Assembly (NCBI GenBank): GCA_046539845.1
Contig: JBKHGE010000007.1
Location: forward strand, 1-64,000
From: Desulfonatronovibrionaceae bacterium
GTDB taxonomy: Bacteria; Desulfobacterota; Desulfovibrionia; Desulfovibrionales; Desulfonatronovibrionaceae
Direction: 5' to 3'
DNA length: 64,000 nt
Every line of letters starts with the position of its first letter. Position 1 is the first letter of the stretch. A model generated the notes under the pieces. The model saw nothing but the letters and a program-made list of their open reading frames with translations. It was not told the origin of the DNA and did not search any database. Positions 7,479-28,676 of this stretch are shown here, piece by piece. The translations under genes were made by a program, and so were the position numbers.

Positions 7479-7597
7479 GCCTGATCCTTTTACCGGCCGG
7501 GCTTTTGGCTCCGGGTTTCTCAATCCCCGTCAATCCAGCACTCAAATCAAAGTTTAAATGCCGGGCTCCCTAGTAAAGGCTTGCAAAAGGATCAGGC
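7479..7597. repeat. 119-bp segment bounded by a 13-bp inverted repeat, with an internal hairpin related to the rnpB element
   Basis: GCCTGATCCTTTT (7479-7491) / AAAAGGATCAGGC (7585-7597); internal CCAGCACTCAAA-N6-TTTAAATGCCGG (7535-7564). Confidence 0.6.
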
Positions 7598-23346: not shown

Positions 23347-23387
23347 TCCGGCACTCAATTTTATGCATTGAGTGCCGGATTTTTTTT
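23347..23387. terminator. Terminator hairpin between convergent cutA and cysS; shares termini with the rnpB-inserted element
   Basis: TCCGGCACTCAAT-N7-ATTGAGTGCCGGA followed by a T-run. Confidence 0.8.
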
Positions 23388-26043: not shown

Positions 26044-26141
26044 TGTTTGTCTTCTCGGTTGCGGCGGCTGTTTTTTGGGGCGCGGATTTTGGGTTTATGT
26101 GTATATAAATTCGGGAGCCGGACTATAAGCCGGGTTCTGTT

Positions 26142-26255
26142 CCCCGGCACTCAGTTTATAAACATATTCTTGTTTTTTGCGGAGTCAGATATTTAAAAAT
26201 ACTGTCTCCATGTTGGTCAAAAACGTAGAATGCGTAAATAAACTGAGTGCCGGGG
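26142..26255. mobile_element. Palindromic MITE/REPIN-like element, copy 1 (forms P19 of RNase P RNA)
   Basis: 18-bp perfect terminal IR CCCCGGCACTCAGTTTAT/ATAAACTGAGTGCCGGGG; ~90% identical to 26431-26543. Confidence 0.8.
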
Positions 26256-26430
26256 CGGCTACCATTCCTCTAGGACGGGAATTTCTTCCCGCCTCCAGCG
26301 GCCCACCCGGAGACTTTGACCGGGCCGGTCTCGAGCGTCTCCCTATTTGGCCTTGCTTCAGACGGGGTTTGCCTAGCCTGTCGCGTCACCGCGACAGCTG
26401 GTGAGCCCTTACCTCACCTTTTCACCCTTA

Positions 26431-26543
26431 CCCGGCATTCAGTTTATAAACGCATTCTTTGGTTTTTGCGGAGTCAGATATTTAAAAATACTGTCTACAT
26501 GTCGGTCAAAAATTTAGAACGCGTAAATAAACTGAATGCCGGG
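26431..26543. mobile_element. Palindromic MITE/REPIN-like element, copy 2 (forms P12 of RNase P RNA)
   Basis: 17-bp perfect terminal IR CCCGGCATTCAGTTTAT/ATAAACTGAATGCCGGG. Confidence 0.8.
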
Positions 26544-26678
26544 CGGTTTGTTTCTGTGGCACTTTCCCAGGATCGCTCCTGCTGGGCGTTACCCAGCGTC
26601 TCGCCCTATGAAGCCCGGACTTTCCTCCGTTCTTCGCTCGCGAAGACCGGCGGCAGCCCGTCCGGCTCCCGAAATATC

Positions 26679-26707
26679 AGTATAATACCGTGAACCACGG
26701 ATGACAA
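26679..26707 (-). promoter_or_regulatory. Sigma70 promoter of rnpB
   Basis: TTGTCA-17 bp-TATACT about 6 nt upstream of P1. Confidence 0.85.
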
Positions 26708-27480: not shown

Positions 27481-28473
27481 TTAATAGATTCTGGCGCTGA
27501 ACGGATCTTTCCCCTGGATAAAGGAGATCTCCAGTCCAGGCAGTTCTGTCTGCAATTGTTTGTACCAGCAGTGCATCATTTCCTCTTCCAGGATAAAGTG
27601 CCCGGCGTCCAGGGCGAACCCCAGTTTTTCTATCTCCTGGGCCTGGTGGTATTTTATGTCACCGGTTATATAAATGTCCGCTCCCAGTCCGAATGCCTGC
27701 GGAGCAAAGTCCGCTCCAGATCCGGGACAATAGGCTATTTTTTGGATCCGTTCCGGGGGATCGCCCACGAAGCGCGTATTGGTGAGTTCCATTATCCCGC
27801 CCAAGCTGCGCAGGAAAAAATCCGGGGACATCTCCCGCTCCAGGGAGCCGTACACTCCGAATCCGAATTTTTTCACCGGAGTGCGCAGAGCAAAGGTGAT
27901 TGCCGAGTGTCGCGGATAGTTGTCTTGCAGCCAGGAGAAAACGGCCCGTTCCTGGACCGCCCAGATGGTAATTCCGCCCGTCCTTGCCGTGTCCGTTCTT
28001 TCTTCGGCAAGGACGAAGTCTTGTTTTAATTGTTCAAGCGCCTGCACCGGGAGTTCGGGGTAAAATTTTATCCTTACCGCCGGAATCTCCTGTGAGGGGT
28101 AAACGGTTCCTATCTCCTGCAATCCTAGGCTTTGGGCCAGCCACAAAGCCGGTCCATCCGGATTTGCATCCAGGGAGGTGTGCGCGGAATAGAGCCAGAT
28201 TCCTCGGCTGAGCAGGGTTTTTAATATAGTGTGATAAGAATCTATCTCTGCCGGCAGTCCGGGTTTGAGGCTCAAGGGATGGTGGCAGAGCAGAAAATCG
28301 CAATCCATATTTGCTGCCCTGGCCACTGTTTCCTCAGAGGGGTCCAGGGCAACGGCCATCCTGGAGATATCCTGTTTTTCCGAGGCCACCTGCACCCCGG
28401 AGCGGTCCCAGTCCTCGGCCAAAAACAGAGGCGCGGTCCTCTCAATCGTGTGGATTATTTCCTTGTACAGCAT
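27481..28473 (-). CDS. Nif3-like dinuclear metal centre protein
   Basis: APL.LAEDWD.SG, HHP, HTSLD, CPGSG, YITGD, DAGHF. Confidence 0.9.
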   Translation of the reverse strand: MLYKEIIHTIERTAPLFLAEDWDRSGVQVASEKQDISRMAVALDPSEETVARAANMDCDFLLCHHPLSLKPGLPAEIDSYHTILKTLLSRGIWLYSAHTSLDANPDGPALWLAQSLGLQEIGTVYPSQEIPAVRIKFYPELPVQALEQLKQDFVLAEERTDTARTGGITIWAVQERAVFSWLQDNYPRHSAITFALRTPVKKFGFGVYGSLEREMSPDFFLRSLGGIMELTNTRFVGDPPERIQKIAYCPGSGADFAPQAFGLGADIYITGDIKYHQAQEIEKLGFALDAGHFILEEEMMHCWYKQLQTELPGLEISFIQGKDPFSARIY

Positions 28474-28600: not shown

Positions 28601-28676
28601 TGGTGGGCCAACCAGGATTCGAACCTGGGACCGTCCGGTTATGAGCCGGGGGCTCTGCCAACTGAGCTATTGGCCC
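28601..28676 (-). tRNA. tRNA with CAT anticodon, probably tRNA-Ile2 (lysidine)
   Basis: GGGCCAATAGCTCAGTTGGCAGAGCCCCCGGCTCATAACCGGACGGTCCCAGGTTCGAATCCTGGTTGGCCCACCA; paired G1-C72 and no GGG/CCC anticodon stem, so not initiator. Confidence 0.93.

Follow-up and report, generated by a model that had tools for sequence, protein, structure and literature searches.

Two hairpin inserts in an RNase P RNA gene as probable members of a gene-less hairpin family of the Desulfovibrionales

The RNase P RNA gene (rnpB) of a Desulfonatronovibrionaceae bacterium carries two closely similar long hairpins, one at the tip of helix P12 and one at the P19 site, and every conserved part of the gene is intact though about 40% of it is repeat-derived hairpin. 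We conclude that the inserts are probably long-form members of a REP/MITE-like, gene-less hairpin family of the Desulfovibrionales, characterized by a conserved GC-rich basal stem (CCN-GCACTYA ... TRAGTGC-N'GG) and a freely varying, often AT-rich interior. Members of this family form or extend outer helices of structured RNAs, namely P3, P12 and P19 of rnpB, a variable hairpin of cobalamin riboswitches and a helix in one 23S rRNA gene, and they also occur as short stem-loops after genes.

Results

A complete rnpB gene with inserts in P12 and P19

The window analyzed here, a whole stretch of 64,000 nucleotides (positions 1 to 64,000 of contig JBKHGE010000007.1), belongs to a metagenome-assembled genome (GCA_046539845.1, hereafter G000) of 2.34 Mb in 65 contigs that is 98.9% complete. 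Its rnpB encodes a full-length bacterial type A RNase P RNA of 560 nt on the minus strand (26669..26110), which matched the RNaseP_bact_a model (RF00010) over model positions 1-367 and scored 312.1 bits (gathering score 100; E 2.7e-101). The conserved core (P4, J3/4, the P15 region and ACAGAACCCGGCUUA) is present, P1 pairs at 14/14 positions between 26110-26123 and 26660-26673, and posterior probabilities of the alignment were high except in two inserts, without which the gene measures ~333 nt. This was the single rnpB match in the genome, which also encodes rnpA, and the closest named rnpB, from an uncultured Desulfovibrionales metagenome-assembled genome, is 89% identical across 563 nt. A tRNA gene lies on the same strand ~1.9 kb from rnpB (28604-28676, minus strand; Rfam 66.9 bits).

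In the Rfam alignment the first insert falls within the terminal loop of P12, flanked by ACCGCCCGGCAU and, on the 3' strand, by ...GGGUAAGGGUGAAA; the second is at the P19 site, where it separates the 3' strand of P2 from the P4 strand ACAGAACCCGGCUUA. The P12 insert is a hairpin of 113 nt (26431..26543, minus strand) with the basal stem CCCGGCAUUCAGUUUAU / AUAAACUGAAUGCCGGG and a predicted fold of -50.5 kcal/mol (z -9.4); the P19 insert is a hairpin of 114 nt (26142..26255, minus strand) folding at -53.7 kcal/mol (z -10.0). Each copy forms one long hairpin that none of 200 shuffles matched in stability, and the perfect basal stems of 17 bp (P12 copy) and 18 bp (P19 copy) continue into imperfect pairing. 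The two copies share 90% identity over 113 nt (E 9.3e-38 in a search of the entire 2.34-Mb genome), and at alignment columns 16 and 113 they differ by a compensatory pair, GCAC/GUGC in the P19 copy versus GCAU/AUGC in the P12 copy.

These results bear out much of a preliminary description of the window, which had proposed a gene of ~564 nt (~340 nt without inserts) with its conserved regions intact, placed the inserts in P12 and P19, counted about 10 substitutions and one indel between the copies, and described each as a single long hairpin with a 17-18 bp terminal stem and a compensatory GCAC/GTGC versus GCAT/ATGC pair. A second, normal rnpB, raised there as a possible alternative, was not found in G000 besides the gene at 26110..26669. 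The promoter had likewise been described as intact. A sigma-70-like site, TTGTCA-17-TATACT, is indeed present on the minus strand at 26679..26707, ending at 26679, ~10 nt upstream of the RNA 5' end, and matches the hexamers at 10/12 positions, but with one such site in the 1-kb region versus 0.7 expected from shuffles it is a weak indication of the rnpB promoter.

Assembly support for the double insert

Two long near-identical hairpins in one gene of a genome in 65 contigs might be the product of misassembly, and contigs from public sequencing runs do break within both copies, at their common core. Those breaks are nevertheless located where a repeated word should split such contigs. Contigs of two possible source runs (X1 and X2) cover 26080-26203, 26178-26492 and 26467-26700 with zero differences, so that all four junctions are covered, and they end only inside the core common to both copies; a contig from a third run (X3) extends over 26080-26427, likewise with zero differences, and thereby bridges the entire P19 copy. 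In addition, two congeneric genomes (G001 and G003) carry both inserts at the corresponding sites. We consider an assembly artefact extremely improbable.

An RNA run (X20) contained 0.05 of the sampled words, and its contigs comprised rnpB of other organisms or relatives only. Its joints across P12 carry other letters between the sides and are uninformative on excision in G000, and run contigs of this kind cannot reveal RNA ends. The family stem does occur in contigs of the X20 RNA library, which may also contain DNA. Near window positions 26627-26630, rnpB contigs of other community members (X1-X3 and X20) run from the conserved GGAGGAAAGUCC directly into the family stem, for example CCCCGGCACTCAG, and other organisms in these samples thus appear to carry P3 copies.

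Copies of the element within the genome

Searches of the whole G000 genome (blastn with word size 7 and nhmmer --max) returned no third copy of the 113-nt unit, the best other matches being at most 32 nt long with E of at least 0.068. Perfect terminal inverted repeats of 17-18 bp, with a stem core common to the whole family, are what would be expected of a MITE; dispersed copies of the same unit are not found, since the unit occurs only twice, both times in rnpB. The preliminary description had proposed a non-autonomous element and had named confinement to rnpB as the outcome that would favour local duplication over mobility, and confinement to rnpB is what we observed. Membership in a repeated family holds for the basal stem, which is dispersed, gene-less and located at hairpin tips, but not for the whole unit. 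Within G000 the family is recognizable by its basal stem alone, and it came to light only through relatives.

The basal stem recurs in G000 as 14 short forms of 25-32 nt (CGGCACTCA-loop-TGAGTGCCG), identified by a relaxed pattern search for which the control count was 0. With ORFs called crudely at a threshold of at least 90 aa, all 14 short forms are intergenic and each lies within 250 nt of some ORF 3' end, which is the placement of REP/REPIN extragenic palindromes; several are followed by a T run and are terminator-like. One member of 29 nt, again CGGCACTCA-loop-TGAGTGCCG followed by a T run, lies in the window at 23349..23377 (no strand assigned) between the 3' ends of two convergent ORFs, 9 nt from that of a 485-aa minus-strand ORF and 83 nt from that of a 124-aa plus-strand ORF. 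The hairpin is followed by TTTTTTTT and looks like a two-way terminator. A second of the 14 in the window, the intergenic stretch at 7536..7563 (no strand assigned), CAGCACTCAAAT...TTTAAATGCCG, is probably a degenerate short form, a less certain assignment that was recovered by the relaxed pattern only.

We also considered whether the stems might be DNA-uptake sequences. These typically number thousands per genome, and the ~61 single stems of G000 are far too few, so this reading was rejected. Elsewhere in the genome, a ~290-nt intergenic stretch (G000:C56:1621-1910) closed by the palindrome AACCGCCCG/CGGGCGGTT contains a family short form together with three more strong hairpins (fold -124 kcal/mol). 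In the equivalent stretch of G001, a single long-form copy of 105 nt takes the place of the entire interior. The G000 stretch may represent a structured RNA that lacks annotation, or else an accumulation of repeats.

The family across the Desulfovibrionales

Excision of the P12 and P19 regions from the rnpB genes of relatives by means of conserved anchors revealed the family to which the stem belongs. The rnpB genes range from 345 to 615 nt among 37 of 41 related genomes, and most of the long P12 helices begin and end with CCN-GCACUYASUU ... AASURAGUGC-N'GG around unrelated interiors, giving CCN-GCACUYA...URAGUGC-N'GG as the basal stem of the family. A pattern search for the paired stem with an interior of 20-130 nt found it in 44 of 151 genomes of the order, with the highest counts per genome at 111 (G009), 91, 70, 45 and 41, while the reversed-pattern control gave 0 in all 151. 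Short forms were present in 14/151 genomes; in this order-wide count G000 had 13, G001 had 36 and G009 had 37, against 0-1 per genome for the control.

An Rfam E-value scan of a long copy from G001 (contig C29) identified no family RNA known for the element alone: its matches, to microRNA precursors and a leucine leader, all fell far below the gathering scores. Three candidates for in-frame insertion into protein genes (L042, L043 and L061) were rejected, as none of the three ORFs has a Pfam match; moreover, the reading frame of L042 crosses masked bases, and in L061 the copy sits at the 5' end of the ORF, an end that is itself doubtful. In the copy-rich genome G009, two loci (L176, G009:C2:1-9000, and L177, G009:C5:1-9000) hold near-identical 57-nt family copies with conserved outer flanks (GTGAAAC...GTTTCAC). 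These copies separate small ORFs of toxin-antitoxin or defence types (Gp49/HTH, AbiEii, PIN, YhgA-like nuclease and integrase fragments) in a layout that resembles a cassette array. The occurrence of some G009 copies in such arrays of toxin-antitoxin-type ORFs, with outer AAC/GTT boxes, prompted a tentative reading as possible integron attC sites.

Members in other structured RNAs

The family is not confined to rnpB. Each of the two cobalamin riboswitches of G000 has a family-stem insert (86 or 93 nt), which in both lies in the hairpin bounded by CCACUG and CGGGAAGG; together with the copies in P12 and P19 of rnpB, this places every long-form member of the genome in a peripheral helix of a structured RNA. 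Across the order, 36 distinct long-form loci outside rnpB were scanned with Rfam, of which four lie in known RNAs and 32 in no known RNA family. Cobalamin riboswitch aptamers with a family copy occur in G001, G002 and G020, and the 23S rRNA gene of G010 (L060) holds a copy ~270 nt into the gene.

Within rnpB itself, a count over 32 genes of the order that allowed at most one mismatch in the 10-nt stem core found the stem in P12 of 16, in P19 of four and in P3 of two, with one further P12 case misplaced by the anchors. Copies in P3 were seen at loci L005, L007, L019 and L045, and many genomes of the order have a short P12 from which the stem is absent. In the 388-nt rnpB of G027 (L009), P3 and P12 are both short forms with the same stem, AGCACUCAACUCAU (G027:C12:28123-28154 and 28246-28276), which shows that the family can take the place of helices with no gain in RNA length.

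History of the two rnpB copies

Both inserts are present in three of the four genomes of the genus (G000, G001 and G003), and the fourth, G002, has the stem in P12 only and an ordinary P19 region of 33 nt. The P19 insert predates the split of G000, G001 and G003; its orthologous copies in G000 and G001 are 93% identical overall and 90% identical in the interior. The P12 insert is inherited, given the stem in P12 of half (16/32) of the rnpB genes of the order. The interior of the G000 P12 copy is 94% identical to that of the G000 P19 copy and only 61-64% identical to that of the orthologous P12 insert in G001, the closest relative, pointing to recent replacement of the P12 interior by sequence of the P19 type. 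The G001 P12 interior is more similar to the P19 type when read on the opposite strand (76%). The near-identity of the two copies is thus best explained by recent homogenization within the gene, in which P12 was converted by the P19 copy in the G000 lineage. This history departs from the preliminary description, which had read the two copies as two hits in one essential gene: one insert is inherited, the other is common to most of the genus, and their interiors are homogenized rather than independently and freshly inserted.

The same data could also be read as an extended P12 hairpin that was duplicated into the P19 site and kept alike by gene conversion, with no mobile element making the P19 copy. 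Such a local origin suits the interiors that are 94% alike and the lack of another 113-nt unit in G000, as well as the second-level arms that the copies also share (UUUAUUUACGC.UUCUA / AGAAU.CGUUUAUAAA), which are seen too in P12 of genera g2 and g3. It is harder to reconcile with the long copy at G001 C29, which lies outside rnpB and has the same second-level arms, with the recurrence of the stem in 14 intergenic hairpins and two riboswitches of G000, and with its presence in P19 of genus g10, of G126 and of a Sedimentisphaerales genome. Local duplication accounts for the similarity of the copies and not for the family, and we regard it as an unlikely account overall.

Further signs of turnover come from a family copy nested inside the tip of the G009 P12 copy and from one orthologous intergenic site that is occupied by a short form of 29 nt in G000 and by a long form of 105 nt in G001. 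These signs fit insertion into, or exchange at, hairpin tips. They agree to that extent with the hairpin targeting suggested in the preliminary description, but targeting is not proven by them, since tip insertions are also the only ones that selection by itself would let survive in essential RNAs, and targeting is therefore not separable from survival bias.

The same stem in other phyla

To place the stem beyond the order, one genome per species was scanned with an 18-mer pattern for the P12 junction plus stem. This returned 88 stretches, a number at or below chance by estimate, from which we kept only stretches matching rnpB with a complementary 3' stem. Outside the Desulfovibrionales, six genuine rnpB P12 helices with a complementary 3' stem remained, one in the Desulfobulbaceae, two in the Desulfobacterales, one in the Nitrospirota, one in a Clostridia metagenome-assembled genome and one in the Thermovirgaceae. 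The rnpB of a Sedimentisphaerales (planctomycete) metagenome-assembled genome (L166) has this stem as a P19 hairpin. Dispersed copies were looked for in five carrier genomes: the rnpB copy of one genome was all that the long-form pattern recovered, and the short-form pattern gave one match, in another genome. Our favoured idea is that the stem reached distant phyla by recombination through the conserved rnpB core.

Candidate mobilizers

No target-site duplication was evident at the three junction pairs that were read (P12, P19 and G001:C29), where no clean pair of filled and empty sites fixes the exact ends of the element; the preliminary description had proposed target duplications as a check on insertion, and these junctions offer no direct repeat. 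Nor did the loci read contain any longer element that combines these ends with a transposase gene.

We considered a RAYT-like protein of G000 (C41, 360 aa), which scores 58.2 against NF047646 relative to an NCBIfam cut-off of 80 bits, as a possible mobilizer. No family stems lie within ~1 kb of its gene, and paired stems were found at 0/6 loci of strong orthologues within 1.5 kb, so that the cognate repeats that would flank a RAYT gene are not seen at C41 or at its orthologues. Strong C41 orthologues are encoded by 20 of the 151 genomes, and long copies are present in 15 of these 20 versus 29 of the 131 without an orthologue; within the repeat-rich families f1 and f2 the corresponding numbers are 13/16 and 25/42. 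This co-occurrence is confounded by kinship. With its genes unflanked by the repeat, the RAYT is not upheld as the mobilizer, and we retain it as a candidate.

Two other transposase loci were noted. An IS200/IS605-type pair at G000:C23:460-1300 comprises a Y1 transposase of 145 aa (153 bits) together with the beginning of a TnpB-like ORF, with no family stems near it. At L194 (1300-2130; G089:C22), a HUH/Y1 (RAYT-like) gene of 204 aa lies between two family copies of 63 nt that share one orientation. This gene sits among GTAG-type REP-like repeats of a second kind and is unrelated to the C41 protein.

Discussion

Membership in a gene-less hairpin family, the reading that we prefer, suggests how the inserts could arise and persist. 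The element would move or be copied as DNA into the single-stranded tips of hairpins, or would spread via recombination between common stems, and the insert would then be transcribed as part of the host RNA. It would be tolerated because P3, P12 and P19 are peripheral helices with tips away from the catalytic core, so that the insertion simply continues a helix. Copies in structured RNAs may outlast intergenic ones, since imprecise deletion would break a needed helix. Against mobility of the family, the absence of other 113-nt copies leaves recent transposition in G000 unsupported. For a stem conserved across families, and in other phyla without dispersed copies, sequence constraint at the level of the RNA would fit at least as well as selfish spread.

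Such a constraint could mean that the inserts are a selected RNA module or expansion segment, whose basal stem would serve for recognition or processing, for instance by RNase III or RNase E, and which either is excised to give a fragmented RNase P RNA or acts as a folding aid. The sequence of the stem, beyond its pairing, is kept in P12 across different families of the order and also in six genomes from other taxa, and each copy offers a perfect duplex of 17-18 bp that continues into imperfect pairing. A precedent exists in Thermodesulfatator indicus, in which an A/U-rich P12 expansion of RNase P RNA is excised in vivo, as evidenced by northern blot and RACE, and in which its replacement with a short P12 impairs complementation, leading to the proposal of a folding aid (PMC9945441). 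The T. indicus P12 sequence quoted in that paper is without this stem. Moreover, the interior sequence, length and even orientation of the inserts differ between close relatives, P19 occupancy varies within the genus (the G002 region being ordinary), many genomes of the order carry a short, stemless P12, and the short forms follow unrelated genes in a terminator-like manner. We therefore hold a selected module to be rather improbable.

In a further reading the hairpin would be no ordinary transposon: it would be a module living mainly in structured RNA genes and spreading without a dedicated transposase, by conversion of stems within genomes and by homologous recombination through the RNA core between distant bacteria, and would then be excised in the manner of an intervening sequence to leave a three-piece RNase P RNA. 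Conversion between conserved stems would explain the overwrite of P12 by the P19 type, and recombination through the conserved core flanking P12 would explain why the stem is found in rnpB P12 and nowhere else in Nitrospirota, Clostridia, Synergistota and Desulfobacterota. We regard this reading as an improbable alternative to membership in a REP/MITE-like family.

The rnpB gene described here shows the amount of foreign helix that P12 and P19 can accommodate. A single stem family provides helices at three sites of RNase P RNA, in cobalamin riboswitches and in a 23S rRNA, as well as terminator-like hairpins after genes, and it is a concrete source for the unexplained 'variable insertions' or expansion segments that are an obstacle to annotating bacterial RNAs and to their covariance models. 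The stem in P12 of unrelated phyla raises the question of whether conserved RNA cores serve as landing pads for horizontal spread, and the system provides a natural test of whether bacterial RNase P RNA works in fragments, beyond the single described case.

Comparison with known systems

REP, BIME and REPIN sequences of Enterobacteria and Pseudomonas are mobilized by RAYT (HUH Y1) transposases. The present family resembles them in consisting of short GC-rich palindromes in tens to about a hundred copies, which are extragenic near gene 3' ends, form hairpins and fall into subfamilies, in a genome that has a RAYT-like gene. It differs in that members also lie inside structured RNA genes, with an interior between the arms of 5 to ~90 nt, and further in that the RAYT-like genes are unflanked (0/6 loci) and score 58 versus 80 bits, and that no GTAG-type leader was identified. 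Rickettsia palindromic elements, which have been reported inside protein-coding and stable RNA genes, rnpB among them, are likewise gene-less palindromic repeats tolerated at permissive places of essential genes, stable RNAs included. They are of another sequence family and host, and for the present family no in-frame protein-coding insertions were found.

STRR repeats sit in rnpB P12 of heterocyst-forming cyanobacteria and are a parallel in their location, as genome-wide repeats at the P12 tip of a functional RNase P RNA. They are tandem heptamers in one helix, whereas here a single long palindrome occupies up to three helices. Bacterial 23S rRNA intervening sequences, which are removed by RNase III, are also long hairpins, which take the place of a peripheral helix tip in a stable RNA and are distributed sporadically among relatives, and a family copy does occur in the 23S rRNA of L060. 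To our knowledge, intervening sequences are not part of a repeat family common to rnpB, riboswitches and gene 3' ends.

Like the G000 insert, the P12 expansion of T. indicus lengthens P12 considerably, is A/U-rich towards its distal end and belongs to the type A RNase P RNA of a sulfate-reducing lineage, and it demonstrates that such an insert can be compatible with function. Its sequence is different, its excision has been demonstrated by northern blot and RACE, and a second copy in P19 or a genomic repeat family is not reported in the accessible part of its description. A literature search that left most subscription journals outside its reach found no description of one hairpin family common to RNase P RNA, riboswitches and 23S rRNA. 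The kind of element that we describe is known, and what is new is its spread over several RNAs and phyla together with its homogenization within a single gene.
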